NCBI GenBank assembly: GCA_963734695.1
Contig: CAVTIL010000015.1
Location: forward strand, 465,260-529,259
Direction: 5' to 3'
DNA length: 64,000 nucleotides
Source: an uncultured Acidobacteriota bacterium
GTDB lineage: Bacteria; Acidobacteriota; Vicinamibacteria; Vicinamibacterales; 2-12-FULL-66-21
In this document: piece by piece, positions 10,151 through 47,268 of the stretch
Position numbering within the stretch: position 1 is the stretch's first letter
Layout of the letters: the number at the start of each line of letters is the position of its first letter
Translations under genes and position numbers: made by a program
Notes under the pieces: model-generated
The model's input: the letters and a program-made list of their open reading frames with translations, nothing else
What the model was told of the DNA's origin: nothing
Databases searched by the model: none

Positions 10151-12670
10151 CTACTCCACTCTCAACGCGGCTATCGGATCAATCGCCGCTGCGCGACGCG
10201 CGGGCACGTAGCCTGCCACGAGTGCCGTGCCAATCAGGATCCCCGCAAAACCGGCAAAGACCCGAACGTCGCTGGTGGCGATCCCCAGGAGCCCGGCCTC
10301 CATCAACCGGCCGAGCGCGAGCGAGAGCCCCAAACCGATCGCCGAGCCGATCAGTGTCAGTCGCAGCGCCTGGCCAAGCGTCAGCCGCATTACATCGTGA
10401 CTCGAGGCGCCAAGCGCCATGCGAATCCCGATCTCGTGCCGGCGTTGCGCGACGAAATACGTGATCAACGCGTAGAGGCCGACCGAGGCCAGCAGCAGCG
10501 CGATGGCCGCGAAGACGGTCATGATCGCAGCCAGATACTGCAGGCCAATGGTTCGCTCATGGAGCGCCCGGCGCATCGTCATCACCTCGAACACCGGTTG
10601 GGCAGGGTCGACGCCGAGCAACGCGCGCCGCGCCGTGGGCGCGGCCGACAACGGATCTCCAACCGTGCGAATGACGAAACAGAGGTAGTCGCTCGTGGCC
10701 TGCCGAAGCGGCCGATACATGACCGGTGAATTCCGGCGGTTGAACCAGTCGTGGATGACATCCCCCGACACGCCGACGACGGTCAGCCACGGTCCCTTTG
10801 GCACTTTGACTCGACGTCCGATCGGATCTTCATTCGGCCAGAACTTCCGCGCCATGGATTCCGAAATAATGACAACCTGCGCCGTATCCTCACGATCGAA
10901 GTCCGTGAAGTCCCGGCCGCGCAGCACAGGAATCCGCATGGCCGAAAAATACTTGTCCGTCTGAACTCGGAAATCGACCGATGGCAGATTGTTCGCGTCC
11001 GGCGCGGGATGACCCTCGATCTCAATCTGATGAGACCGGTTGGAGCCGCTCGTGGGCATGTTGTTGATGGCGGCGGCCTGTTCGACACCCGCAATGCCGT
11101 TCAGCGCATCGAGGGCCTTCGCCACGAACTGACGACGCGACGGGTCATCCGGGTACACGCGCTCGGGCAGCACGAGCTTCATCGTCAGAAGGCCTTCGGG
11201 ATCGTAGCCTTGCGGTCCCGTGAGAAAGCGCCGCGTTCCGAGCACGCCAAGCCCGGCCGCGACGAGGAGCGGCAGCGCGATCGACATTTCGAGGACGACG
11301 ATCGCGCGGCGAAGATTCTGTCGCCCGGTCGACGTCCGCCCTCCCTCCTTGAGCGTGTCAACCACCGACGACGAGGCGGCCTGAAACGCCGGCAAGAGCC
11401 CGAACACACATGCCGTCAGAATCGCTGCGCCGAAGGTGAAGGTCACGAGCCTCAAATCAGGACCCAGCGACTCGAACCCGGGGACGAATCGCAGGATGTT
11501 CGCCGGCATGCTGACGCGGATCGCGTACAGGCTCACCCATGCGAATCCGAGCGCTGCTGGCACCGCGAGGAGGGCGAGCAGCGCGCTTTCTGTGAGCGAT
11601 TCACGGATGATCCGGCCGCGGCTCGCGCCGAGCGCCAGACGAACGCCGGTCTCATGTCGCCGTTCGGCCGCGCGCGCCAGGAGCAGGTTGGCGATGTTGG
11701 CGCACGCGATCAGGAGAACGATGACCGCCGATGCCTGCCACAGCGAGAGCATCGGCCCGGTCCCTTCGTCCAGCATCCCCTGGGTCAGCGTGTAGACCCG
11801 CACGCCATGGTCGCGGTTCGCTTCGGGATACTCGCGCGCGAGCCGCGCCGCCAGCACCGACATCTCTGATTGCGCGTCCTCGAGCGTCGCGCCGGATTGA
11901 AGGCGGCCAATAGCCGTGAGGTACCGTGGGTTACGTGGCGGCGTCGTCCCGGGATCGAACGCGAGGGGCGACCAGAGCTGACACCCTTCAGGAAAGGCAA
12001 ATCGCGGCGGCATGACCCCGATCACCTGGTACGGCACGCCGTCCAGGATCACGCTGCGCCCTATGACCGACGGAGCCGCCTCGAAGCGACGCCTCCACAA
12101 CGCGTCGCTCAGAATCACGACGCGATGCCGCCCGAACGTCTCATCGTCTCGCACGAACGTCCGGCCCAGCGCCGGCCGCACGTTCAGCGATTCGAAGAGG
12201 CCGCTGGTCACCTGGAAACCCGCCAGCCGTTCGGGTTCGCCCCGTTCGACCAGGTTGGCATCCCACCAGCCATACGCGGACAGGAACGTCAGCGTCCGCG
12301 AATCGGCGCGCCAATCAAAGAAGTTCGCCGGTGAAACTGATCCTTTCTTGTAGTCGAGGTTGGGCCCGCTCTCGGAAAGCAGGACGACTCTGTCGGGATC
12401 GTCAAGCGGATAGGGACGAAGCACGAGCCGATCGATGAGGTTGAAAATGGCAGCGTTCGCGCCGAGACCAAGCGCCAGCGTCATCGTCACGGTCAACGTG
12501 AGGAGAGGGCGTTTGAACAGCGCACGCCAAGCGTACTGGATGTCTTTTAGAACCTGCACCGGATTATCGTTTCTGATCGGTCGCAGGGTAACTCTACGCG
12601 CGCCAAGGAAGACAGGTTCAGGGATTGCTGTCCCGATTACGGCCGATGCCCCAGCCCGCGAGCGCGCCAA
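10151..12670 (-). CDS. ABC-type permease, ADOP family (MacB-like periplasmic domain plus two FtsX domains)
   Basis: 839 aa. Conserved N-terminus ...LKDIQYAWRALFKRPLLTLTVTMTLALGLGANAAIFNLI. Two FtsX-like 4-TM modules. C-terminal ...PARRAAAIDPIAALRVE. No adjacent ATPase gene. Start may lie at an internal codon. Confidence 0.8.
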   Translation of the reverse strand: MARSRAGASAVIGTAIPEPVFLGARRVTLRPIRNDNPVQVLKDIQYAWRALFKRPLLTLTVTMTLALGLGANAAIFNLIDRLVLRPYPLDDPDRVVLLSESGPNLDYKKGSVSPANFFDWRADSRTLTFLSAYGWWDANLVERGEPERLAGFQVTSGLFESLNVRPALGRTFVRDDETFGRHRVVILSDALWRRRFEAAPSVIGRSVILDGVPYQVIGVMPPRFAFPEGCQLWSPLAFDPGTTPPRNPRYLTAIGRLQSGATLEDAQSEMSVLAARLAREYPEANRDHGVRVYTLTQGMLDEGTGPMLSLWQASAVIVLLIACANIANLLLARAAERRHETGVRLALGASRGRIIRESLTESALLALLAVPAALGFAWVSLYAIRVSMPANILRFVPGFESLGPDLRLVTFTFGAAILTACVFGLLPAFQAASSSVVDTLKEGGRTSTGRQNLRRAIVVLEMSIALPLLVAAGLGVLGTRRFLTGPQGYDPEGLLTMKLVLPERVYPDDPSRRQFVAKALDALNGIAGVEQAAAINNMPTSGSNRSHQIEIEGHPAPDANNLPSVDFRVQTDKYFSAMRIPVLRGRDFTDFDREDTAQVVIISESMARKFWPNEDPIGRRVKVPKGPWLTVVGVSGDVIHDWFNRRNSPVMYRPLRQATSDYLCFVIRTVGDPLSAAPTARRALLGVDPAQPVFEVMTMRRALHERTIGLQYLAAIMTVFAAIALLLASVGLYALITYFVAQRRHEIGIRMALGASSHDVMRLTLGQALRLTLIGSAIGLGLSLALGRLMEAGLLGIATSDVRVFAGFAGILIGTALVAGYVPARRAAAIDPIAALRVE

Positions 12671-32955: not shown

Positions 32956-35697
32956 TCAGGGTTGCGGTCGTCCTGACGCAACGCGTCTTTTTAGATCCTC
33001 GAACCAATTGACCACGAGGTTGATCTGCGCGGCAGGCACGTCGGGCTCCACCGGCTGAACCATCAGGAATCGTCCATCTGCCGCCACGTCGTAGCCGGCA
33101 CCGCCGGTGTCGGTTCGCATGTAGTGACCCTCGAAGAGCACTCGCGGAAGCCCGGCAGCCAGCGTCGGCTTGTTCGATATCCGGACCGCCAGCATCGTGT
33201 CCTGTCGACGGTAGTACAACTCCTGGCCATTCCGTGACCAGGCAGGCTCATAGCCTCCATCGATCGAGACCTGCAGCTTGGCGCCGGGACCCGGGAAGGC
33301 CCTTACATAGATCTCGCTCTTGCCGGACTCGTCCGACGAATACGCGAGCGAGTGGCCGTCTGGTGCGAAGCGGGCGCCTCCCTCTACGGATCCCGTCTTC
33401 AGAAATACCTGCGGCTCACGCCGATCCATCTGAAGGACCATGAGGTCCGGCCCGGTGCCGGTCGAGGTATCCACGAACGCCAGGGACTTGCCATCCACTG
33501 ACCACGACGTCGGAGTCTGAAGGTTCTCGCTCGTGGTCAATCGCTTCTCTTCGCCGCCGCCGTCCACCGCCTTCACGTACAGATTCCGAAAGCCGGTCCG
33601 GCTCCCGCGATAGACGATGCGCGTGCCGTCCGGGGACCAGGTCGCGGATTGGCTACTCCCCACCGACGTCGACGTCAACGCGGCCAACGTGTGCCGAGTC
33701 AGGTCGTAGATCCATATGGCCTCGATAGCGCCCAGCGTGGTGAAAGCAAGATATTGTCCGTCGGGCGAGAGCATTGGATCCGTATACCCGCGCGGCGGCA
33801 GCGGCAGCGGATCGACGTTTCCGCCGGGGTCAACCCACACCAGCCGTCGGTCAAAGCGCCTCGGCGCTGCCGGGAGATAGGCCAGCAAGCCCGAGCCGGA
33901 CACAGTGAAGTGCGCGCCTTCATCGTCGAAGGCTCGTTCAGGCAGCGCCACTGGCGCACCGCTCACCTGCAGCTGCGAGAGATCGAACGGCACCGCAAAC
34001 AGCGCGTCGTCTCTGGAATAGACGATGTGTCCGGAGGATACGTACCGGCCCGTGCTCGCCCCCGGGACCAGTACCCGACGTTCGCCTGAGCCCAGCATGT
34101 GCAGATGAAGGTGTCTTTCATCCGACCCCGGACCGGTCCAGACCGTGAAGATGACGGCCGCACCGCCCGGCAGCATCTGCGGCCATCGATGGCTCACCTC
34201 GCCTTTGCTCCGGTCGAGCGTCGTGACCACGGTTGCCGAACCGCCCGCGGCAGAGACCTTCCACAAGGCCGAGGTGTTCGTCGGGGCAAAGTAGATCGTA
34301 TCGTCAGCCGCCCAGGTTCCGCCCTCGGTGCTCGCCGCGTCGCAAACGCTCTGGACGGCCCCACCAGTCGTGGGCACCCTCTTGAGTTTGCCCGTCGAGA
34401 AAAACCCGATCGACTGGCCGTCCGGGGAGAAGAATGGCGCGACGGCTTGCTCGGTTCCGGGGATTGCGCGTGTTTCCAGGCTGTCGACCGCGCGAATGAA
34501 GATCTGGGTCGTGCCTCCATGCAGGCCGATGTAAGCGAGCAATGTGCCGTCGGGAGACAACGCGATCGAGGGCCGTAGCGGATCCCCTATCAGGTCGCCC
34601 GGTGGCAACGGCATGGCGAGGCGGACGACGGGAGACGGAGGGACACTCGCCAGAGGTTTCAACGCCCACGTTGCAGCGACTGCAGCAACGACCGCAGCAA
34701 GGACGAGGACCGCTGCACGAGTGATTGAAATCCCTTTTCGCTGATTCGACGTTTCCGCTCTCGCGGCAGGGGAGACGTCGATCGCGGTCGCTGAGCTGCT
34801 CTCCAGCACCCACGTCAACTCGCGCGCGACGTCGCGGGCGCTCTGCCATCGATCCTCCGGGTCCTTCGCAAGACACGTCGCGATCAATCGGTCCAGCGCA
34901 CGAGGCGCCACCGGCTGGAGCGTCGACGCCGGTGGTGGCGTATCGCTCATGATCGAGCGCATCAGGCTCATCCGGCTGGGTCCGTCGAACGCCTTCTTGC
35001 CCGTGATCATCTCGTGGAGCAGCGTTCCAAACGCAAAGATGTCCGTTCTGGCGTCCGTCTCCTGCCCCTCGAGCTGTTCCGGCGCCATGTACTGCAGTGT
35101 GCCCAGAACCTCTCCTGCAACGGTCACATCGGCCTCGGTCGCGCCTACCGAGACCAACGCGCTCTGAGGATCCCGGAGCTTCGCCAGACCGAAGTCGAGC
35201 AGCTTCACACCGCTCTTGGTCAGCATCACGTTCCCGGGCTTCAGGTCCCGGTGCGTCACGCCGTGCCGATGCGCCTGATCCAGGGCGTCCGCGATCTCAA
35301 TTGCGTAGCGCAGCGTCTCGGGGATCCGAATTGGGCCGTGCTGGAGACGTGCGGCCAGTGTTTCGCCGTTCACGAGTTCCATCACGAGAAAGTCAATCTG
35401 CTCGTGGCGGCCCACGTCGTGAAGCGTGGTGATATGCGGGTGGTTCAACCCCGCGATCGTGCGTGCTTCGCGCTCGAAGCGGGCGCGGGCCTCGGGGTAC
35501 GACGACAAGTGCGCCGGGATGACTTTGATGGCGACGCTTCGATTGAGGCGGGGATCGCGCGCCTCGTAGACCTCGCCCATGCCACCGGCGCCAATGAGGG
35601 CGACGATTTCGTAGTGCCCCAGCCGGTTTCCTGCGGTCAAAGGCATGATTTGTCCAGGAGTGGCTGGATTATGGCATCGATCGAGCGGGCGGACCAT
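32956..35697 (-). CDS. Ser/Thr protein kinase with TM segment and large C-terminal PD40/WD40-like beta-propeller domain
   Basis: 913 aa. Kinase motifs GAGGMGEVYEARD, AIKVI, HRDLKPGNVML, DFGLAK, YMAPEQ. Then a TM segment (VLVLAAVVAAVAATWAL) and repeated PD40-like units (SPDG...LAF/LAY). Intact. Confidence 0.8.
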   Translation of the reverse strand: MVRPLDRCHNPATPGQIMPLTAGNRLGHYEIVALIGAGGMGEVYEARDPRLNRSVAIKVIPAHLSSYPEARARFEREARTIAGLNHPHITTLHDVGRHEQIDFLVMELVNGETLAARLQHGPIRIPETLRYAIEIADALDQAHRHGVTHRDLKPGNVMLTKSGVKLLDFGLAKLRDPQSALVSVGATEADVTVAGEVLGTLQYMAPEQLEGQETDARTDIFAFGTLLHEMITGKKAFDGPSRMSLMRSIMSDTPPPASTLQPVAPRALDRLIATCLAKDPEDRWQSARDVARELTWVLESSSATAIDVSPAARAETSNQRKGISITRAAVLVLAAVVAAVAATWALKPLASVPPSPVVRLAMPLPPGDLIGDPLRPSIALSPDGTLLAYIGLHGGTTQIFIRAVDSLETRAIPGTEQAVAPFFSPDGQSIGFFSTGKLKRVPTTGGAVQSVCDAASTEGGTWAADDTIYFAPTNTSALWKVSAAGGSATVVTTLDRSKGEVSHRWPQMLPGGAAVIFTVWTGPGSDERHLHLHMLGSGERRVLVPGASTGRYVSSGHIVYSRDDALFAVPFDLSQLQVSGAPVALPERAFDDEGAHFTVSGSGLLAYLPAAPRRFDRRLVWVDPGGNVDPLPLPPRGYTDPMLSPDGQYLAFTTLGAIEAIWIYDLTRHTLAALTSTSVGSSQSATWSPDGTRIVYRGSRTGFRNLYVKAVDGGGEEKRLTTSENLQTPTSWSVDGKSLAFVDTSTGTGPDLMVLQMDRREPQVFLKTGSVEGGARFAPDGHSLAYSSDESGKSEIYVRAFPGPGAKLQVSIDGGYEPAWSRNGQELYYRRQDTMLAVRISNKPTLAAGLPRVLFEGHYMRTDTGGAGYDVAADGRFLMVQPVEPDVPAAQINLVVNWFEDLKRRVASGRPQP

Positions 35698-35809: not shown

Positions 35810-36748
35810 ATGACGACGGCATTTACCCGTTTCAGCCGCATCAGTCCGCTCTTCGTCGCCCTCGCGATCGTCGCCGCCCCCCACATCCTGAACGGCGCCA
35901 ATAAGCGCATCGTCCTCATCGCCGGCAGGCCGAGCCACGCGCCGGGTGAGCACGAGTTCCGCGCGGGATCGATGCTGCTCCAGAAGGCGCTCAGCGGCGT
36001 CAGCGGCGTCACCGTGGATGTCATCACGATGGGCTGGCCGACCAAGACCGTCGACGGGCAGGTCGTTGACGACAACGCTGCGCTCGACAACGCCGATGCG
36101 GTTTTGATCTACGCCGACGGCGGCGGCGGTCATCCGGCCATCCAGCGCGATCACATGAAGGTCATCGACGCGCTGGCGGCGAAGGGTGTCGGCCTGGGCT
36201 TCGCGCACTACGGCGTCGAAGTGCCGGCCGGCCCGACAGGCGAGGCGATGCAGCGCTGGAATGCCGGCTATTACGAAACGAATTTTTCAGTGAACCCGAT
36301 GTGGAGTCCGGCATTCGACAAGTTCCCGAACCACCCGGTGACCAGGGGCGTCAAGCCGTTCGGCAACAACGACGAGTGGTACTTCAACATGCGCTGGACC
36401 GGCGACGCGTCGTTGATGAAGCGGCTGACGCCGATCCTGACGGCAAAGCCTAGCGACGAGGTTCGGAAGGGACCGTATGTCTCTCCCAAGGGCCCCTACC
36501 CGCACATCATCGCGGACAGCGGCAAGGTCGAGACGATGATGTGGGTGTACGAGCGGCCGGATGGCGGCCGAAGCTTCGGGTTTACGGGCGGCCACACGCA
36601 CACCAACTGGGGTGATGTGAGTCAGCGGAAGGTCGTCCTGAATGCGCTGCTGTGGATCGCCAAGATGGACGTGCCCGCTGGCGGGGTCCAGGACTCAATC
36701 ACGCCGGCAGATCTGACAGTGAACCTCGACGACAAGAGAAGGAAATAA
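35810..36748 (+). CDS. ThuA-family (class I glutamine amidotransferase-like) secreted protein
   Basis: 312 aa. Signal peptide ISPLFVALAIVAAPHILNGA. Motifs IVLIAGRPSHAPGEHEF and DAVLIYADGGGGH typical of ThuA domain proteins. Confidence 0.65.
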   Translation: MTTAFTRFSRISPLFVALAIVAAPHILNGANKRIVLIAGRPSHAPGEHEFRAGSMLLQKALSGVSGVTVDVITMGWPTKTVDGQVVDDNAALDNADAVLIYADGGGGHPAIQRDHMKVIDALAAKGVGLGFAHYGVEVPAGPTGEAMQRWNAGYYETNFSVNPMWSPAFDKFPNHPVTRGVKPFGNNDEWYFNMRWTGDASLMKRLTPILTAKPSDEVRKGPYVSPKGPYPHIIADSGKVETMMWVYERPDGGRSFGFTGGHTHTNWGDVSQRKVVLNALLWIAKMDVPAGGVQDSITPADLTVNLDDKRRK

Positions 36749-36751
36749 TCG

Positions 36752-37821
36752 TCACTGAAAGTACGCGTCGACGGTTTCGATGGAGCCGTCGGCGCGGTAC
36801 TTCAACTCGGTGACCTTGATGTTGCGCAGGTGCGTCTGCCCTCCCGACAACTGCGCGTCGTGGTAGAAGAGGTACCACTTTCCCTTGAATTCAACGATGG
36901 AGTGATGATTCGTCCAGCCGAGGACCGGCTCAAGTACTTTGCCGCGGATGGTGAAGGGACCGTACGGCGACTTCGCCGTGGCGTACATGATGAAGTGCGT
37001 GTCGCCGGTTGAGTACGAGAAATAGTACGTCCCGTTGTACTTGTGCATCCACGACGCTTCGAAGAAGCGCCGCCCGTTGTCTCCATAGGTCAGCGGCTTG
37101 CCTGCTTCATCGACGAGCACACATCCTTTGGCGCCTCCGCGAGGCTGACCATGTCGTCGCCAAGCCGCGCAACCTTCGCGCTGAGTGCAGGCTGATCCTT
37201 TGCGGGATACTCATCCTTGGCGACATAGGTGCCCGTCGCCCAACGCTGCAGCTGCCCGCCCCAGATGCCGCCAAAGTACATGTAGTACTTGCCGTCAGCG
37301 TCCTTGAAGACTGCCGGATCGATGCTGTACGTGCCCTTGATCGCTTCGGACTGTGCCTTGAACGGACCGGCAGGCTTGTCGGAAACGGCGGCGCCAATCC
37401 GGAAGACGTCCTGCTTGTCCTTCACCGGAAAGTACAGGTAGTACTTCCCGCCCCTCTCGGCCGCGTCAGGCGCCCACATCTGCCGGCCTGCCCACGGCAC
37501 ATCCTTGATGTCGAGCGCGACGCCGTGATCGGTGACCGGGCCGCCGACCGCGTCCATCGAAAGCACATGGTAGTCGCGCATGGCGAAGTGGCTGCCGAGA
37601 TCATCAGGAGGAACGCCGGCGTCGATGTCGTGCGAAGGGTAGATGTAGATCTTGCCGTTGAAGACGTGGGCGGAAGGATCGGCGGTGTAGATCTCCTTGA
37701 TGAGCGGCTGTGTCAGAAACTTCGCCGGATCCGGTTTCTGGGCGGCCCCGCCCTGGCCACCCACCAGCGCCGCAGACGCGACAACAGCAACAACCACACC
37801 CGTGATTCCGCATCGGCACAT
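36752..37821 (-). CDS. glycoside hydrolase family 43 (beta-xylosidase/alpha-L-arabinofuranosidase-like). Apparent frameshift near 37110.
   Basis: N-terminal ORF 37090..37821 has a signal peptide plus a GH43 core (ADPSAHVFNGKIYIYPSHD, GGKYYLYF). C-terminal ORF 36752..37120 has YYFSYSTGDTHFIMYATAKSPYGPF and GKWYLFYH. The two overlap by about 30 nt. Confidence 0.7.
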
Positions 37822-37966: not shown

Positions 37967-38800
37967 ATGCGGGGACTGAACCGCCTCACGTTTGCAGCGG
38001 CGGCTCTACTCCTGGGCGCGTGGTCCCCGGGTTGCGGCGGCTCGTCTGCCTCGACAACACCGACCTCAATACCGCCTCCCGCTGCGCAATCATGGGCTGA
38101 CGAGTTCGATGGCCCCGCGAACACGCTGCCAGATCCCGCAAAGTGGACTTACGATCTCGGCAACAACAACGGGTGGGGAAATCGGGAACTGGAGAACTAC
38201 ACGAATCTCGTTCAAAACGTGCACGTCGATGGCTCCGGTCACCTGATCATTCACGTGGACCAGAGCGGTTCCACCTACACGTCGGCGCGAATCAAGACAC
38301 AAGGATTGTTCTCGGCGCGGTACGGCCGTGTCGAGGCTCGCATCCGGCTGCCATTCGGCCAGGGCATCTGGCCGGCGTTCTGGATGCTGGGGACCAACAT
38401 CACGTCTGTCGGATGGCCGCAGTGCGGAGAAGTCGACGTGATGGAGAACATCGGCCGCGAACCGTCGGTCAACCACGGCAGCCTTCACGGGCCCGGCTAC
38501 TCGGGCGGGAATTCGGTCACCGGACTGTTCACGCTCCCCGGCGGAGTGAAATTCTCAGACGACTTTCACGTGTTCGCGGTGCAGTGGGCGGCGCAGAGTG
38601 TCGCGTTCTCCGTGGACGGCAATACCTACAGGACCGTCACGCCCGCAACGCTTCCGCCCGGAGCGCCGTGGGTCTTCGACAGTCCGTTCTTTCTGATCCT
38701 GAACGTCGCCGTCGGCGGCAATTTCCCTGGGAACCCCGACGCGAGCACGCAGTTTCCGCAGGAGATGATCGTCGATTACGTCCGGGTATCCGGCGCGTAA
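37967..38800 (+). CDS. glycoside hydrolase family 16 (laminarinase/beta-glucanase-like) lipoprotein
   Basis: Lipobox LLLGAWSPGC. GH16 core with EVDVME-type catalytic motif (GEVDVMENIG). Intact, 277 aa. Confidence 0.8.
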   Translation: MRGLNRLTFAAAALLLGAWSPGCGGSSASTTPTSIPPPAAQSWADEFDGPANTLPDPAKWTYDLGNNNGWGNRELENYTNLVQNVHVDGSGHLIIHVDQSGSTYTSARIKTQGLFSARYGRVEARIRLPFGQGIWPAFWMLGTNITSVGWPQCGEVDVMENIGREPSVNHGSLHGPGYSGGNSVTGLFTLPGGVKFSDDFHVFAVQWAAQSVAFSVDGNTYRTVTPATLPPGAPWVFDSPFFLILNVAVGGNFPGNPDASTQFPQEMIVDYVRVSGA

Positions 38801-39069: not shown

Positions 39070-39414
39070 TCACGGTCTGACAGCCATCCGCACCCGTTCG
39101 CTGTGGAGCTCGTGCAAGAGCCGCATGATGTTGTACGCCGTCAGCTCCACGAGCACCGTCGTCACCTTCGAATGAAGCGGATCGCTCAGCTCACCTTCGA
39201 CGTTCTTCATCGCCGCAACGAGGCGCTGCTCCTGCCCGGCGAGCTCCTGCTTCGAGACCACGCCGTCGGCCAGCGCGCTCGTGAAAGATTCCAGCTTGCT
39301 GACGCGTTCCTGGATTGCCGGGTGCTCCGCTTTCTCATCGAACCAACTCGTTCGTGCCACGAGATACCTCATTTCTTCCTTTTGCGCTGGGGCCCTCCGC
39401 CTCCGCGCGCTCAA
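39070..39414 (-). CDS. small alpha-helical hypothetical protein, last gene of the AAA-ATPase operon
   Basis: 114-aa ORF. A more likely start is the ATG at 39372 (MRYLVARTSWFDEK), preceded by AAGGAAG. No recognisable family. Confidence 0.45.
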   Translation of the reverse strand: MSARRRRAPAQKEEMRYLVARTSWFDEKAEHPAIQERVSKLESFTSALADGVVSKQELAGQEQRLVAAMKNVEGELSDPLHSKVTTVLVELTAYNIMRLLHELHSERVRMAVRP

Positions 39415-39518: not shown

Positions 39519-41288
39519 TCACAGATCTTTCACCAGCTGTTTCAGCGCGGTCAGCCGCTCCTGCAGCGCCGCGCGGCCGCCTGGCACGTCGGTCTTCTTG
39601 ACGATGAGCGGCGGCAGGAACTGCCGGTCGGTGCACTCGAGAATCGCCGCGGTTTCCTGGAGCTCGCGTTCGAGACCCTGCGTGGACGGCATGAACTCTG
39701 AGACCACTCGCGCCAGCGCTTCACGGGTCACGCGACTCGTGCCCGCGAGAATGGACGCGCGCCAGGCACGGCCGACCATGCCTTCGATGTCGGCGCCGGA
39801 CAGCTGGCCGAGTTGCGGAATAGGCGGCACGTCTTCAATCGCCAGCTGCGACCCGAGTTTCTTCGCGAGAATGACGAACATCTGGCGGACTTCTGCTTCC
39901 TCGGTCGGATAGAAGAGTGGGATGTGCACTTCCGCCCGGCCCTGGCGCTTGAGATCGATCGGCAGCAGATCGGGACGGGCCGTCAAAAGCATCCAGACAA
40001 TCCGGCCGCGGTACTGTGTGTCCCCCATCTGCGCGGCAATCATCGCGAAGACGCGGCTCGACGTTCCGGAATCGCCTTCGGCTTCGCGGCTCCCGAGCGC
40101 GGCGTCGGCTTCATCCACCACGACCACGACGGGCCCCATCGCGCGCAACACCGACAGTACGCGCTCCAGATTGCCCTCGGTCTCGCCGACGTACTTCGAG
40201 CGGAAGTTCTTGAGGATCACGCAGGGAACACCGATCTCGCCGCTCACGCACTGCGCGAGAAACGACTTTCCCGTTCCCACCGGGCCGCACAACAAGTAAC
40301 CCATCGGGAGGCTGTCGAGTGCGCCTCGTTTGAGGAGGGCCGCGTCCTCGCGGAGCCGCGCTTTCGCCGCCTCATGACCAACGACCGTATCGAGCGTCCA
40401 TCTGGGTTCGATGAATTCAAGCAGGCCGCGGCACTGACGCTCGAGCAGGCGCTTCTTCAAAGACCGGAACGCGGCCGCATCGAGGCGCTTGCCGCTCTCG
40501 CGGGCCGACTGAATGAGCACGTTGAGATCGGTCTGCGAAATACCCGCGGTCAGCTTGGCGAGCTCGGTGGCATCGAAGTCAGAATAGTCCGCGAGCGGAC
40601 GGTCCGTCGTCGTTGCCCTCACGAACGCCTCGCGCGTCTGCTCCCCGGGCAGCGGGACCTCGATGGTCGCCACGTGCGGATTGCCAGTGAGACGATCGCT
40701 CAGGTCGGCGAGCTTCTCATCAATCATCACGAACGCCATGTTCAAACGCTTCACGTGGGGACTCATGGCCCAGTTCAGCATCGTCACCAACTGAGAGGAC
40801 GCCTGCATGTTGAGCCGGCCAGGCTCGCCCGCGGGGAACACATACGAAGCCTGATCCATGATCAGCGCGAGACTCTGACGATCGTCTTCGGCCGCCATGA
40901 TATTGGCCCGGACGAAACGATCCACGAGGGTAAAGGTCGCGGCCGGATCCTTCGAGAGCGCGCTGAGGTCGCCCAGCTTCTTGTTGGCGAGCGTCACCAT
41001 CTCCTTGAGACGTTTTTCATCGCGCCCCGCGAACGCGCGCAACCCGCGGCCCAGGTCGTAGTGCAGCACCAGCGACCACCGGCCGAACAGCTGCTCGGCC
41101 AGGAACTCCGCCAGGACGCCGTATGGCATGCCATCGTCGGCGCCGATGCGGAAGAGGTCGTACGTGTTTCCGCAGAGAACGAACGCGGCCGTTGTTCCGG
41201 AGAAATAAAGGTCAGCCAGCTGCGACGCCCACGGCGGAAACCACACCGGCAGGTCGGTTGGGCGTCGAGGTCGAGACTCAGGCATCAT
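39519..41288 (-). CDS. classic-clade AAA+ ATPase with ~330-aa N-terminal domain of unknown function
   Basis: 589 aa. C-terminal AAA module: Walker A LLCGPVGTGKSFLA, Walker B VVVVDEADA, sensor-1 LLTARP, arginine finger region DLKRQGRAEV, and a classic second region of homology SGADIEGMV. The start overlaps the upstream gene by 11 nt. Confidence 0.8.
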   Translation of the reverse strand: MMPESRPRRPTDLPVWFPPWASQLADLYFSGTTAAFVLCGNTYDLFRIGADDGMPYGVLAEFLAEQLFGRWSLVLHYDLGRGLRAFAGRDEKRLKEMVTLANKKLGDLSALSKDPAATFTLVDRFVRANIMAAEDDRQSLALIMDQASYVFPAGEPGRLNMQASSQLVTMLNWAMSPHVKRLNMAFVMIDEKLADLSDRLTGNPHVATIEVPLPGEQTREAFVRATTTDRPLADYSDFDATELAKLTAGISQTDLNVLIQSARESGKRLDAAAFRSLKKRLLERQCRGLLEFIEPRWTLDTVVGHEAAKARLREDAALLKRGALDSLPMGYLLCGPVGTGKSFLAQCVSGEIGVPCVILKNFRSKYVGETEGNLERVLSVLRAMGPVVVVVDEADAALGSREAEGDSGTSSRVFAMIAAQMGDTQYRGRIVWMLLTARPDLLPIDLKRQGRAEVHIPLFYPTEEAEVRQMFVILAKKLGSQLAIEDVPPIPQLGQLSGADIEGMVGRAWRASILAGTSRVTREALARVVSEFMPSTQGLERELQETAAILECTDRQFLPPLIVKKTDVPGGRAALQERLTALKQLVKDL

Positions 41289-42201
41289 TCCGGAGCACCC
41301 CGCGTAGATCGGATTCGAGAATGGCCGGCGGCTCCTCGAGCTGTTCGCCGAGCCCGGTGAGGTGCTGAAGCTCGCTCACGGCCTTTTCGGTCTGCCGCAT
41401 GCTCTCCGCGGCGGAATCAACCTGGCTGCTCAGGAAGTCCGGATCCTGGCGGTTCACGGCCATTTCAGCGAGCGCCTGAATCTTTCCTTCGATGCGGTCC
41501 AGTTCGACGCTGACGAACTCGGCGTTCTTCCTGGCCTTCCCGAAATTGTCGAGACGCAGCTCGCCCATCGCAATGCTGTCCTGGAGCGAACGCACGACCC
41601 GGTCGTCGCCTGATGCCTGCGCCGCGGCCAGGCTCTTTCGCAGCTCTTCGAGGCGGCCGGAGATCTCCTGGCCATCCATGGTCTTCAGGAACCGATCGAG
41701 GGCCGTTTTCGACATCAGCAGTCGAAGGAAGAGCCAGAGCAGGCGATCGAGGCCCGGCGTACGAATGTCTTCCACCGACGACGCTTGAGTCCCCGCCGCG
41801 CCGCGAACGCCGGCGGCGATGCCGCGCATTTCGAGACACCGCGCGTGCAGGCGCTCGAAGCGGGTCCGCGCCTCGGCGGGCAACCCGCCCAACATCGTCA
41901 CTAGCGACACTGCGGGTGCGGCAGGAACGTCGTCGAACGGGCGCGATCGGGTGGCGTGCATCTTGGCATCGATCGCCCCGCGAAAACGTGGCATCGAAAT
42001 CAGACCGGCGAGATAGGCCAGTTCACCCGCGCCTACGAGCGGCAGCAACACCGGCGCCAGCGGTGTCAACGCTGCCGCGGCGGTTCCGCCGAGGAAGAAC
42101 AGCAAATTCCATCGAAACAGAAACGCTTCCTTGAGGTAGGTGCGCGTGTCCGCGCCCTGAGGCGGCACGTTCGGCGGCAGGCTATCGGGCGCCTTAACCA
42201 T
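41278..42201 (-). CDS. membrane protein with two N-terminal TM helices and a ~170-aa C-terminal coiled-coil region
   Basis: 307 aa. TM1 LLFFLGGTAAAALTPLAPVLLPLVG and TM2 LAYLAGLISMP, then heptad-rich segments (LEELRKSLAAAQASGDDRVVRSLQDSIAMGELRLDNFGKARKNAEFVSVELDRIEGKIQALAEMA). The start overlaps the upstream ABC ATPase stop by 8 nt. Confidence 0.6.
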   Translation of the reverse strand: MVKAPDSLPPNVPPQGADTRTYLKEAFLFRWNLLFFLGGTAAAALTPLAPVLLPLVGAGELAYLAGLISMPRFRGAIDAKMHATRSRPFDDVPAAPAVSLVTMLGGLPAEARTRFERLHARCLEMRGIAAGVRGAAGTQASSVEDIRTPGLDRLLWLFLRLLMSKTALDRFLKTMDGQEISGRLEELRKSLAAAQASGDDRVVRSLQDSIAMGELRLDNFGKARKNAEFVSVELDRIEGKIQALAEMAVNRQDPDFLSSQVDSAAESMRQTEKAVSELQHLTGLGEQLEEPPAILESDLRGVLRNDA

Positions 42202-43094
42202 CGCCAGCCCGAGTCGATTCGCACAGATTGTCGATGATGTCGCGGATCTCGAAGACGTATCGCATGAACTCCGGCTCGCGCTGCATCTCTTTCGGCGGCC
42301 GGTCGGGGGACGGGACCTCCATCTGCTTCAGAATCGTGCCGGGCGCCGACGAGAAGATGTAGACGCGGTCCCCCAGGTACACCGCCTCCTCAATGGAGTG
42401 TGTCACGAAGAAGACCGTCGCCTGCGGCCTCGCGCCAGAGATCGACCAGCAGCGCCTGCATGTGGAGCCTGGTGGTCGGATCGAGCGCACCGAACGGTTC
42501 GTCCATGAGGATGATGCGCGGCGAGAGAATCAGCGTCCGGGCGATCGCCACGCGCTGTCTCATGCCGCCGGACAGCTCGCTGGGATACTTCGTGGCGTCC
42601 CGCTTCACATCCAGTCCGACCTTGGCAATCCACTCGCGCGCGCGTTCGCGGCGTTCCGCTGCAGGCACGCCACGACATTCCAACCCGAACGCCACATTGT
42701 CTTCGACGGTGCGATTGTCGAACGACGTGTAGTCCTGGAAGACCATGCTTCGATCGGCGCCCGGGCGTTCCACGCGATTGCCCGCGACCAGCACGGTTCC
42801 CTCGGTCGGCGGATGATGCGGCCGAAGCCCGGCGATCAGACGGAGCACTGTCGATTTCCCGCAGCCCGACGGGCCGAGGATCGCGATGAACTCGCCCTTA
42901 TGCGGCAGGTCTGGCACTGAGAACGTGATGTCGCGAACGATGGTCACGCTGCCGAAGCGCTTCGTGACGTTCTTGAATTCGACGACGTTGCCAAGAGCGG
43001 CGGGTGCGGCCTGGGGATCGCTCACGTCAGTCCTCGACCGCACGATACGGGAACAACCCGCGCTGGAACCAGAAGAGCACGCGGTCGATGCCAT
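42194..43094 (-). CDS. ABC transporter ATP-binding protein (NitT/TauT family, SsuB/TauB-like). Apparent frameshift near 42450.
   Basis: Frame 42390..43094 has Walker A GPSGCGKST, Q-loop, signature LSGGMRQRVAIA and Walker B IILMDEP. The C-terminal helical region with H-loop (TVFFVTHSIEEAVYLGDRV) is in frame 42194..42490. The true start is probably near 43030, just after the permease stop. Confidence 0.7.
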
Positions 43095-43848
43095 ACGCGA
43101 GCACGCCGATGATCATCAGGATCAGGATGATGTGCTCGGACAGGCCTCGCCGCTGGCTTGCCATGAGGAGATATCCGAGCCCGTGCTCGGCGTTGATCAG
43201 CTCGGCGAGCATGATATAGCCGAAGGCCAGCCCGAACAGGTGCCGCAGGCTGTTGTAAATGTCGGGGAGCGCGAGCGTGACGAGCACCTTCAGCACGACC
43301 TGGTGCGCTTTGGCGCCAAGCGTTTGCGCGGTTTCGACGTACCGATCCGGTACGCCGACGACTGCAGCCACCGCGTCCGAGTACACGAACGGCACGCACG
43401 CGATGAAGATGAACATCACCTTCTGCGTCTCGTCGATCCCGAACCAGAGAATCGTCAGCGGGATGAGTGCGGCAACGGGCAGATTGCGTCCGAAGAGCGC
43501 GATCGGCGCGCCGGCTGCTTCAATCACCCGCCACGCGCCGGCGGCAATGCCGAGCGGCACGCCGACGAGCGCCGCCAGGCCAAACCCGACCAGTACCCGT
43601 TTCAGCGTGGCCGCGATGCTCTGCAGCAACGCCCGTTCCTTGAACAGGCTGGGGAAGCTTCGAATCACTTCGCCCGGACTCGGCAGAATCACCGGCGAGA
43701 TCCAGCGATCCTCGGATCCCAGTCCTGACGTCGCGATCCACCACACGAGCACGATGACGCCGACGGCCAGTGCGCCGACGAGCTGCCGCGTCATTCGCGG
43801 CGGCGAGATGCGCAGCGCCAGGAGTTCGGGTTTGGCGTCGCCCGGCAT
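43027..43848 (-). CDS. ABC transporter permease (NitT/TauT family)
   Basis: 273 aa, 6 TM helices. Binding-protein-dependent permease loop (TAQTLGAKAHQVVLKVLVTLALP). Intact. Confidence 0.8.
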   Translation of the reverse strand: MPGDAKPELLALRISPPRMTRQLVGALAVGVIVLVWWIATSGLGSEDRWISPVILPSPGEVIRSFPSLFKERALLQSIAATLKRVLVGFGLAALVGVPLGIAAGAWRVIEAAGAPIALFGRNLPVAALIPLTILWFGIDETQKVMFIFIACVPFVYSDAVAAVVGVPDRYVETAQTLGAKAHQVVLKVLVTLALPDIYNSLRHLFGLAFGYIMLAELINAEHGLGYLLMASQRRGLSEHIILILMIIGVLAYGIDRVLFWFQRGLFPYRAVED

Positions 43849-45578
43849 TTACTTCGCGCCCGGCGCCGCTTCCGCCGGGTACACCTTCACCTCGACGCGT
43901 CGGTTCTTGGCGTTGTTCTCGGGATCGGACGGGTCAGCCGGGCGATCCCATCCGATCCCGGCGGTTGAGAACTGATTCGGCTGCAGCGACGGGAACTTCC
44001 GCACGATTGCTTCCTTCACGGAATTCGCGCGGTTCAACGACAGTTCCTGGACCAGGCTCTTCGGCACCGACGCCTTCATCGACGCGTCGGTATGTCCTTC
44101 GATCACGATCCGCGCCGCCCCGTACTGCCCTGCTAGCTTGCCAATCTCCTCGACGACGAATCCTACATTCGGGTCGTACAGCTCTTCGGTGTCCTTGCCG
44201 CCGGCGTCGCGCGTCACCTTCTTGTTGAGATCCCACGAGTTGGGGAAGAAATGGATGACCACGGTCTTGGTCAGGATCTCGTCCTTCTCGCCTTGAACCG
44301 TTCCGGCTGACGCCGGCGCGAAGTGGACGTCGTACTCGTTCTTCTGCGACGCGTATTTCGGCTCGGAGGCCAGCTTCTGGATGATGGAGAAATCCATTAC
44401 CTGATCGAACGGTGTCTGCTCGGTCACCGCGTTGATCCGCTTGTAGAGGAAGTACGCGTGGACCAGGTGCGCTCGAAACTGGTCGGGTTGTTTTGATTCA
44501 GGAAGAAGTCGCGGTTCTCGGCGTAGTTGGTCGAGTGCGCATCGCCGAGCATCCCGAGCGCGTCACCTTCAGGAATCGAGTAGCCCGCGGCCATCAGCTT
44601 CGCGACCTTCTGCTTCGAGTCCTGCGACTTCAAATCCACCATGGCGTCGAAAATGCCACGGGTGATCCCTTCCATGATGTCGGGATTGTCTTTGGCAAAG
44701 TCGGCGCGCGCGAACCACACGTCCGCGATCAGCTTGTTCGCCGTCGCCGTCGTCACGAGCATGTGATTGCCCTTGACCTTCTCGAGGTTGTAGATGTCGG
44801 GCGCCCAGCTGACCACGCCGGCAAGGCGCTTGTCGGCATTGAACGCTGCGGCCGCCTGGAACGCATCCTGGGTGAACTTGAACTCGATTTCTGCGGGCTG
44901 AACGCCCGCGTTGATGAGCGCGTTGAGGATGAAGAAGTGTGACGGCGAGTTCTGAGCCAGCACCACCGTCTTGCCGCGCAAATCGGCCATCGTCTTGATC
45001 GCGTCGCGGACGACGATGCCGTCGCCGCCGTTCGACCAGTCGACCTGCTGATACACGCGAGGCATGACGCGCGAGTCCTTGCGCAGGCCTTCGAGAAAGA
45101 GCGGGATCATGTCGAGCGTCGCCCAGCCGATGTGCAGGTTGCCGGCCGCGTACGCGTCGCGCATCACGATCGGATCGTCACTCAGCACGAGCTCGACCTT
45201 GAAGTCCTTGCCGCCGGGCGTCTTCCACAGCTTGCCGGGCTTGAAGCCGTTGTTCGCGAGAATGATCGGGCTCCAGCCGGCCCACACGTTGATGCCGAAT
45301 CGCACCGTGCGGTCGGCCATCGGCTTGTAGCTGGAGATGCCCTTGACCTCCGGCAGACGTGTCGCCGCGACGTAGTTGTATTCCTTGACCGTCGTGATGC
45401 CGGCGCTGTCCGGCGCTTCGGCGCCGCTCTGCATCTTCTTCAGCTCGTCGGCCGAGAATTGACCGGTCTGCGACTTCGGTCCAATCGCGCCATACCGCCA
45501 GAGCGCGAGACCGACGAGACCGAGCACCATCACCAGGACGGCGACGTAGAAAGTGGGTCTGGGCTTTCCGTTGGCCAT
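43849..45578 (-). CDS. NMT1/SsuA-like periplasmic substrate-binding protein fused to a C-terminal OmpA-like domain. Apparent frameshift near 44440.
   Basis: 384-aa SBP frame (TM anchor FYVAVLVMVLGLVGLALW, NMT1-like core) ends artificially in ...FERTWSTRTSSTSGSTR*. The adjacent frame reads through (...HAYFLYKRINAVTEQTPFD...) into the 192-aa ORF, which carries an OmpA-family motif set (IVIEGHTDASM...LSLNRANSVKEAIV...NRRVEVKVY). Confidence 0.55.
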
Positions 45579-45615: not shown

Positions 45616-46462
45616 TTACACTCTTCTCCGAGGGCTTCGCCTCTCGGATCCCAACACGCGCTCTGCGCGCGCTTCGTCGGCGCGCTCCTGCGCTGTTTGG
45701 ATTAATTCGTTTGTTTCTCGGTGGCTTTTTCGGCCGCGGGTCCGAGATCCTTCGCCGTCTGGCGCGATCGGCGATGTCTCGGGTGACTTCAAGCCCAGTT
45801 CGACCTCGAAGTCGGTGAGCGCCTGCTCGGCGAGCTGGCCTTGCATGCGCTCCTCGGCCTGGATCTCGGCGATGCCCTTCTGCGACAGATCCGCCGCCAC
45901 GCGCACCTTGCCGCGGTTCTGATCGATCTTCTGCTGGATGACGCTCTCGATCTCGCCGAAGTCCGTCGTCAGGTTCATGTCGAACGTCTCGGAGAGCTTG
46001 GCGATCTCGGCCTCGGCCGCGCTCATCTTCAGCTCGGCGTCGTACTTCTGGATCTTCTCGCGCAGCTCGATCAGCTTTTCGTTCGCGTGCTGGATCTTCT
46101 TCAGGCTGTTGCCGTAGGCGGTCTCGTGCATCTGGAGCTGGCCTTCGTTGGCCGCCAGCTCCTCCTTCGGCCTTCTGCAGCTCGAGCGCGAACTTTGCCG
46201 CGGTGGTGCGATCGCCGGCCTTGAGGTAGGCCTTCGTCTCCGCTTCGAGCTTCTGCACGTGCGACTTGTTGGCGGAGACCTGCCGGGTGACCCGCTCGAC
46301 GAGCCCGCGGTACTGCTCGAGGCCGGTGCGCCCTTCCTTGAGCTGCTCGACGGCGCGGTCGTACTCGTATCGCATCTGGGCCACCGGATCGGCCTCCCAG
46401 AAGATGTTCGCGACCTTGTTGATCTGCGCCACGAACGCGGACCAGAACTTGTGGAAAATCAC
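45616..46462 (-). CDS. pspA: PspA/IM30 (Vipp1) family protein. Apparent frameshift near 46150.
   Basis: N-terminus MIFHKFWSAFVAQINKVANIFWEADPVAQMRYEYDRAVEQLKEGR...AKFALELQKAE matches the PspA helix-1/2 pattern. Charged coiled-coil remainder (LKKIQHANEKLIELREKIQKYDAELKMSAAEAEIAKL...) is in the 45616..46131 frame. Confidence 0.65.
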
Positions 46463-46487: not shown

Positions 46488-47268
46488 TTACTTCCCGGCG
46501 GGTTCCCGCTCGCCGCCGGCCGCCTCGGCAAGAATCTTGCCCTGGTAGATACCGTCGAGCGCCGTGCGCAGCTCGACGCCGGTTCCGGCGCCGATCACAT
46601 CGCCGCCGACGTCCTTCAGAAACGCGAACTTTTCCGGGCTCGTATCGAACGCGACGAAGTAGGTCTGCACGCCGCCTTCACTCTTCCGCCAGATGTCGCG
46701 CGCCACGTCATCGGGGCTGCGGCCGTTCGTGTTCTCGCCGTCGGTGACGACGAGCAGGTACTTGCGGAACACGCCGGCGCGATACAGGTCTGGACGCGCC
46801 TCGCGCATCGCCTCGCCGATCGCCGTGCCGCCGCCCGGCCGCGGCAGGTTCGCCAGCGTCGAGCGAACCGACGCGCGATCGTACGGCTGAATCGGCCGCA
46901 GGACGTGGACGCTGCTCGAAAAGCTGTAGACGCCAATCTTGATTGGAAAGTCCGGCCGGCGGGCGATGAACGCGTCGGTCGCGTCGAGCATCGCCTCGAG
47001 CGCTTCCTGCGCGACGACGTACTTCGGTCGCGAGTCGCCGGGCGGCGTTCTGCTTCATCGATCCCGAGGTGTCGACCAGGATCGCGACCGCGGCACCGAG
47101 TCCCTCTTCGACTTCGGCCTGATACGGCGCGTCGGACTCCGGAGCGTCGCGGGTCGAGGCCTTGGACCTGTCGCGGTGTGCCGCCGGCTGGCAGGCCAGA
47201 AGAAGCGACGGCAGCAGGATGGCGAGAGCCAACCCCCGTGTTCGTCCAGCGATGGAGCGGGTGTTCAT
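46488..47268 (-). CDS. von Willebrand factor A (vWA) domain lipoprotein. Apparent frameshift near 47040.
   Basis: Lipobox LAILLPSLLLAC. MIDAS motif AILVDTSGSM in the N-terminal frame. YLLVVTDGENTNG and vWA C-terminal half in frame 46488..46991. Confidence 0.6.

Follow-up and report, generated by a model that had tools for sequence, protein, structure and literature searches.

The window analysed here, a 64,000-nucleotide (nt) stretch of contig CAVTIL010000015.1 from an uncultured Acidobacteriota bacterium, carries on its minus strand a gene for a 589-aa ATPase with two AAA domains in tandem, a predicted inactive N-terminal domain (D1) followed by an active classical module (D2). Upstream of it, in the same orientation, are genes for a membrane-anchored helical protein (TMcc), an ABC importer and PspA/IM30, a protein of the bacterial ESCRT-III superfamily. 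Here we describe the architecture of the ATPase, quantify its linkage to these neighbours across bacterial genomes and weigh the proposal that it may remodel PspA-type polymers at the inner membrane.

The initial annotation of the window had called the large N-terminal region uncharacterised, which was an overstatement, as the architecture and the operon are both listed by Ravi et al. 2024 (mSystems 9:e00847-23; PMC11237479, main text and Table S3), who describe inactive-Classical-AAA + Classical-AAA proteins with a PspA operon and give AEY64320.1 and the neighbourhood of OGG56892.1 as examples. The window ATPase is an ordinary member of this family and operon type, already described computationally: a single polypeptide carries both AAA domains, of which the N-terminal is inactive by its motifs, PspA/IM30 is a neighbour, and ABC-ATPase, permease and PBPB+OmpA genes belong to the extended operon; the cluster matches the published one gene for gene. 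The present analysis confirms and sharpens that prediction by identifying D1, from structure, as a probable dead AAA domain, by quantifying the linkage and finding that it holds across rearranged gene orders, and by flagging the Snf7 homology of the membrane partner as unverified.

Domain architecture of the ATPase

The ATPase gene and its two halves are as follows.

39519–41288, minus strand: tandem AAA ATPase, 589 aa, predicted inactive D1 then active classical D2 (open reading frame (ORF) and PF00004)
40404–41288, minus strand: D1, residues 1–295, degenerate (predicted inactive) AAA domain, with FVLCGNTYDL in place of Walker A and LALIMDQAS in place of Walker B
39519–40403, minus strand: D2, residues 296–589, active classical AAA module with lid and conserved C-terminal extension (K341, D392–E393, Y366 in the pore loop, R448/R451)

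The C-terminal half holds a complete classical-clade AAA module, as had been read from its motifs at the outset. Residues 331–457 match the Pfam family AAA (PF00004) with E = 5e-23 and a score of 82.4 bits against a cut-off of 21.2, and the other hallmarks of a classical AAA domain accompany this gathering score: Walker A (GPVGTGKS), Walker B (VVVVDEAD), an aromatic pore loop 1 (KYVG) and the arginine fingers of the second region of homology (in KRQGR), each invariant or near-invariant among 10–29 aligned diverse relatives. Family-wide, across 29 diverse members, the kept forms are GPxGTGK[ST], DEAD, [YW]-V-G in the pore loop and R-Q-G-R at the arginine fingers. The segment SGADIEGMV, which had been taken for the second region of homology, sits in the lid subdomain; the real one is TARPDLLPIDLKRQGRAE.

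The N-terminal half had been judged unlike the MIT, FtsH-N and Cdc48-N domains, and residues 1–330 are indeed covered by no Pfam or NCBIfam family. A search with residues 1–320 alone against 1.84 billion cluster representatives (50% identity) returned 1,231 matches at E ≤ 1e-3, of which 550 reached E ≤ 1e-10, and the full-length members found in this way are mostly 560–610 aa long; the N-terminal domain therefore defines a large family of its own. By structure the region folds as an AAA domain, with about 200 residues aligning at 13–18% identity. In the 29 diverse members a conserved F-[VI]-L-H-G-N-x-x-D-L strand-loop stands where AAA domains have GPxGxGK[ST], and h-h-h-h-D-[YHQ]-A-[EQ] occupies the position of the AAA hhhhDE motif, so that both the P-loop lysine and the Walker B glutamate are missing and the motifs are degenerate family-wide. 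The structural alignment and the degenerate motifs together mark the N-terminal half as a degenerate, presumably catalytically dead AAA domain and the protein as a tandem (type-II) AAA, a more specific form of the earlier guess that the region was a degenerate nucleotide-binding-like fold. In three relatives of 818–856 aa (P0155, P0211 and P0230), an extra N-terminal region of about 250 aa looks like part of the inactive domain repeated once more (for example, ...WAKNPKYRQHDFTVVLLADRAQDLN...GVPHPDEPPRLAYI), which suggests that three-tier variants may exist.

The best Protein Data Bank (PDB) sequence matches of the ATPase are VAT, p97, AFG2, NVL and Rix7. Among NCBIfam models, D2 scores 80.4 bits with Cdc48, 74 with PAN, 59 with FtsH, 54.7 with IteA and 49 with CdvC/Vps4, every one of them far below its own family cut-off. 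Membership of the named families was rejected on these scores and on architecture. For Vps4/CdvC, the 49 bits of NF041006 cover the AAA core only, against a cut-off of 650, and there is no MIT domain; for Cdc48/p97/VAT, TIGR01243 gives 80.4 bits against 802.65, the N-terminal double-psi barrel is missing and D1 lacks a P-loop; for FtsH, 59 bits compare with a cut-off of 600, and there is neither an N-terminal transmembrane (TM) segment nor an M41 protease. SpoVK and CbbX are absent among the NCBIfam matches at E ≤ 0.1; the annotation had named an N-terminal domain of that type, or a clade of known but unrelated function, as what would overturn it, and neither was found. The ATPase has no TM segment (maximum Kyte–Doolittle (KD) value 1.35) and no Peptidase_M41, MIT or Cdc48 N-domain match in Pfam.

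The gene cluster, its membrane partner and its conservation

The remaining genes of the cluster, in order of transcription up to the ATPase and then beyond it, are these.

46488–47268, minus strand: VWA-domain lipoprotein-like gene, apparent frameshift near 47043; in some clades only
45702–46462, minus strand: PspA/IM30 (bacterial ESCRT-III superfamily), apparent frameshifts near 46170 and 45762; the N-terminal fragment matches PF04012
43849–45578, minus strand: substrate-binding protein (SBP; NMT1/Phosphonate-bd type) fused to an OmpA peptidoglycan-binding domain, apparent frameshift near 44481
43027–43848, minus strand: ABC permease (BPD_transp_1)
42194–43025, minus strand: ABC transporter ATPase, apparent frameshift near 42425 (PF00005, 1.4e-30)
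41278–42201, minus strand: TMcc, 307-aa membrane-anchored helical protein ('TM+divergent Snf7' in Ravi et al.), 11-nt overlap with the ATPase gene
39070–39372, minus strand: s97, small conserved ORF (97–101 aa), no family match, downstream of the ATPase

At their junction the TMcc and ATPase genes share 11 nt, stop over start (ATGATGCCTGA), and −4 or −11 nt is typical of this junction in orthologues; the proposed translational coupling of the ATPase to an upstream membrane helical protein is borne out and conserved. The ABC-ATPase stop in turn overlaps the TMcc start by 8 nt (ATGGTTAA). This second overlap was missed at first, as were the PspA/IM30, VWA and ABC importer genes upstream. The ATPase had been said to overlap both its neighbours, and this holds for the upstream 307-aa ORF but not for the downstream 114-aa ORF, from which a gap of 104–146 nt separates it: the ATPase stop lies at 39519, the longest possible s97 frame starts at 39414 (104 nt away), and at 39372 (146 nt away) AAGGAAG precedes the likely ATG, with a homology-supported start at 39360. 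The spacer of 146 nt in the window is unusually long, most orthologues having 3–40 nt. The s97 product has no Pfam match and is 83% identical to a 97-aa ORF (11530–11823) of a close relative, locus L001; it was undetected in Gemmatimonadota and in the distant locus set described below, and it goes unmentioned in the published operon description (Ravi et al. 2024). In scans of the cluster for promoters and terminators, no signal exceeded those of shuffled sequence.

The description of the 307-aa protein as membrane-bound and helical stands. TMcc has a hydrophobic stretch of about 40 residues at positions ~30–69 (KD up to 1.72), and its AlphaFold2 model is all-helical, with residues 100–290 confident (pLDDT ~83–94); one helix runs for 52 residues, and a Pro-rich linker leads to a short helix at the C terminus. 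Ravi et al. 2024 label it 'SIG+TM+Snf7' (PMC11237479). In our comparisons, no Snf7 or PspA_IM30 match appeared in Pfam for nine diverse orthologues even at E ≤ 10, a search of PDB sequences with the family profile brought up no chain of an ESCRT-III protein, hhalign put the match to the PspA family of the operon at E = 0.35, and in Foldseek against the PDB no match had an E-value lower than 0.08 (CdvB2, about 0.6). The assignment of TMcc to ESCRT-III (Snf7) is compatible with these data and unproven here. At its C terminus, the tail ELQxLTGLxxxxEEPPxIL resembles that of the operon PspA, DFEVELGLKSPETTP...KDLGP, with a pattern common to both proteins of hydrophobic-x-x-[LF]-[EQ]-x-x-[LT]-G-[LMI]-x(4-6)-P (PspA tail at ~45702–45800 in the window); judged by this likeness, the ATPase might recognise both proteins by this tail.

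Scanning each GTDB species by one genome, with a 10-sequence alignment as seed, found carriers of the ATPase in at least 591 species-level genomes from five or more phyla. The carrier groups are Acidobacteriota, Gemmatimonadota, Myxococcota, Planctomycetota and Lysobacterales, and one carrier, the myxococcote Paraliomyxa miuraensis SMH-27-4 (L053), is cultured. A metagenome scan seeded with distant members (~30% identity to the window protein in D1) added 80 more loci. Homologues on long contigs have, in order, VWA, PspA_IM30 (252 aa), SBP-OmpA (562–576 aa), the BPD_transp_1 permease, the ABC ATPase, TMcc (a 291–309-aa protein without a domain match), the ATPase and a 97-aa ORF, and the window agrees with them in gene content and order. 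The published Handelsmanbacteria order, PspA, PBPB+OmpA, TM permease, ABC-ATPase, TM+Snf7 and ATPase, is likewise colinear with it (Ravi et al. 2024, PMC11237479).

Neighbourhoods were counted by a uniform hidden Markov model (HMM) analysis of 160 loci, comprising the genome set and the distant set. In the genome set, the gene immediately upstream of the ATPase is TMcc in 60 of the 71 loci with upstream sequence and PspA in 9 more; where the flanks are wide, PspA, TMcc, SBP-OmpA, permease and ABC genes are present in 35/35 and s97, across phyla, in 29/35. TMcc is directly upstream in 47 of 54 distant loci, and among those with wide flanks PspA occurs in 16/16, TMcc in 15/16, SBP-OmpA in 10/16 and ABC in 8/16. 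The clades differ in gene order:

PspA-SBP-permease-ABC-TMcc-AAA-s97
PspA-AAA-s97-(VWA)-SBP-permease-ABC-TMcc
TMcc-AAA-PspA-SBP
PspA-AAA-s97 alone (L059, L066)
PspA-x-TMcc-ECH-CorC-AAA

Because PspA, TMcc and the ATPase persist through these rearrangements, their linkage is strong evidence of a functional connection among the three; and as these genes are found in no fewer than four orders, one of them with PspA directly before the ATPase, their co-occurrence argues for selection rather than for simple inheritance of one operon.

Some loci carry additional genes. At L146 (3675–9707), and also at L147, L151 and L155, an enoyl-CoA hydratase (ECH) gene and a CNNM/CorC transporter gene stand between TMcc and the ATPase; in the L146 sub-clade, a 150-aa protein without a domain match lies between PspA and TMcc, and PspA itself follows a thymidine-phosphorylase-like gene, an arrangement also found in the Archangium example that Ravi et al. 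give. An AbiEii toxin-like gene on the opposite strand directly follows the cluster in the close relatives L001 (11935–12942) and L002 (7309–8316), and is conserved beside it nowhere else.

Proposed mechanism and alternative readings

With roughly even confidence, we propose that the ATPase remodels or recycles PspA-type polymers at the inner membrane, as a hexameric two-tier unfoldase that is a functional analogue of Vps4, which disassembles ESCRT-III by threading (cited in PMC11746142). As a type-II AAA+ unfoldase, it would assemble into a hexamer in which the dead D1 ring most likely serves as a structural ring that docks substrate or adaptor, receiving PspA and/or TMcc. The classical D2 motor, with its aromatic pore loop, would thread PspA or TMcc subunits through the pore; driven by ATP, it would in this way remodel assemblies of PspA, of TMcc or of both, or take them apart, on the cytoplasmic side of the inner membrane. 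TMcc would act as a membrane tether for the ATPase or as a co-polymer, and the ABC importer, with its peptidoglycan-anchored binding protein, may link the module to envelope or solute stress. What the analysis shows is the domain architecture, the state of the motifs, the translational coupling and the gene linkage; that the protein forms a hexamer, what its substrate is, in which direction it acts and what triggers it physiologically are all elements that we infer. The same functional prediction, ATP-dependent membrane remodelling comparable to Snf7/Vps4, was reached independently by Ravi et al. 2024 (PMC11237479), which counts in its favour, as do the family-wide pattern of degenerate D1 and intact D2 motifs, the linkage to PspA and TMcc through several gene orders and the close TMcc–ATPase junction.

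The ATPase has several features in common with Vps4/CdvC (ESCRT-IV): it belongs to the classical AAA clade, has an aromatic residue in its pore loop, is coupled in the genome to an ESCRT-III-superfamily protein, PspA, and has a predicted role in polymer disassembly, but it lacks an MIT domain and is a tandem AAA whereas Vps4/CdvC is single. It shares the two-tier tandem architecture of the type-II proteins Cdc48/p97/VAT, Pex1/Pex6 and NSF, which also supply the best sequence matches of D2; unlike Cdc48/p97/VAT, it has no double-psi-barrel N-domain, and its D1 is fully degenerate, the P-loop lysine being lost. One catalytically silent ring is also found in Pex1/6 (D1) and in NSF (D2). The E. 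coli PspF–PspA pair offers another AAA+ protein functionally tied to PspA; PspF, however, is an NtrC-type bacterial enhancer-binding protein that activates transcription and carries a helix-turn-helix, whereas the window protein has no DNA-binding domain and, as a tandem AAA, belongs to the classical clade. The best-supported description is of a non-orthologous Vps4 analogue derived from a Cdc48-like tandem AAA.

Several observations weigh against the remodelling proposal. The canonical sensor-1 Asn of D2 is replaced by Ala (T436–A437); of the T/N pair read earlier at this site, the Thr is invariant and the neighbouring position is A, C, S or N across the family. The MIT domain of Vps4 is absent, and D2 is nearer to Cdc48 and PAN (80 and 74 bits) than to CdvC/Vps4 (49 bits) in NCBIfam, clade affinity being judged here by relative HMM scores, a crude proxy. 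Vps4/CdvC recognises C-terminal MIM motifs when it disassembles ESCRT-III polymers; the resemblance of the conserved TMcc and PspA tails, however, is statistically weak, at 13.2 in hhalign against 8.9 ± 2.0 for column shuffles, about 2 standard deviations, with a shuffle maximum of 16.1. The window system itself may be partly decayed, or its assembly prone to indel errors, because PspA, SBP-OmpA and the ABC ATPase carry apparent frameshifts; with that in VWA there are five, at sites outside long homopolymers, while the permease, TMcc, AAA and small-ORF genes are intact and the window PspA is, in three frames, 89–96% identical to the intact 252-aa PspA_IM30 of L001. Finally, no experimental study of the ATPase family was found in the literature.

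An alternative that we consider fairly unlikely is membrane-protein extraction or quality control, in which the unfoldase pulls damaged or mis-inserted proteins from the inner membrane, TMcc is a mere adaptor (compare the receptors of Cdc48/p97 or the membrane anchor of Msp1/FtsH) and PspA is co-expressed to seal the membrane. The closeness of D2 to Cdc48/VAT/PAN-type unfoldase modules, its conserved pore loop, the membrane hairpin of TMcc and the lack of sequence evidence for TMcc as ESCRT-III would all suit such a machine. No protease gene is found among the conserved neighbours, however, and the presence of PspA in every wide locus, adjoining the ATPase in some orders, is tighter than mere co-regulation predicts.

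Less probable still is that the ATPase and TMcc are accessories of the ABC importer, which assemble, gate or recycle the peptidoglycan-tethered binding-protein/ABC complex within a solute-uptake or osmotic-adaptation cluster. The overlap of the TMcc start with the ABC-ATPase stop in the window, and the SBP-OmpA, permease and ABC genes in all 35 wide loci of the genome set, fit this reading. What weakens it is that distant relatives often lack the transporter (ABC is present in half of the 16 wide loci, SBP-OmpA in 10) but keep PspA and TMcc, and that some loci consist of PspA-AAA-s97 only. A general cytosolic Cdc48-like proteostasis unfoldase without a specific link to its neighbours is very improbable: VAT, p97 and AFG2 are the best sequence matches, but the protein has no Cdc48 N-domain and no active D1, and its linkage to TMcc and PspA is near-universal across the 160 loci and several gene orders. 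An anti-phage ATPase related to IetA/IteA is scarcely credible, as the PADLOC IetA models (E = 3e-17) and NCBIfam IteA (54.7 bits against the NF042959 cut-off of 510) match the generic AAA module of D2 only, the AbiEii gene beside the cluster in L001 and L002 is not conserved, no protease of the IetS type turned up in the conserved neighbourhood, and a conserved chromosomal module with PspA across phyla is unlike a variable defence island.

Returning to the remodelling proposal, the family is directly relevant to the question of how bacteria disassemble or recycle their ESCRT-III polymers (PspA, Vipp1). A 2025 review states that a Vps4-like ATPase "appears absent in bacteria" (PMC7619361), and intrinsic nucleotide hydrolysis or general chaperones have been proposed as alternatives for PspA/Vipp1 recycling (PMC11746142). 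A stronger version, which we advance tentatively and hold at somewhat less than even confidence, is that the family is the missing bacterial ESCRT-III disassemblase: a Cdc48-derived tandem AAA of independent evolutionary origin whose dead D1, in place of an MIT domain, would capture the conserved C-terminal tails of PspA and of its membrane-anchored, ESCRT-III-like partner for threading by D2. If so, many soil and aquatic bacteria would have a true ATP-driven ESCRT-III cycle, contrary to the textbook and review view of bacteria without a Vps4-like ATPase. The disassemblase idea is already that of Ravi et al. 2024, and what would be new is its demonstration and the mechanism of recognition; the PspA linkage in every well-sampled locus, together with a cultured carrier, makes a Vps4-like role in bacteria directly testable.

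Other genes in the window

Beyond the cluster, a plus-strand gene at 37967–38800 encodes a putative secreted protein resembling family-16 glycoside hydrolases (laminarinase-like, 'EVDVMENIG'). It adjoins a family-43 glycoside hydrolase (GH43)-like gene (36752–37821), which also looks split (at about 37100), and a ThuA-like ORF (35810–36748). On the minus strand, 32956–35697 encodes a 913-aa protein whose N terminus resembles a Ser/Thr protein kinase and whose long C-terminal region appears to consist of TolB/WD40-type beta-propeller-like repeats.
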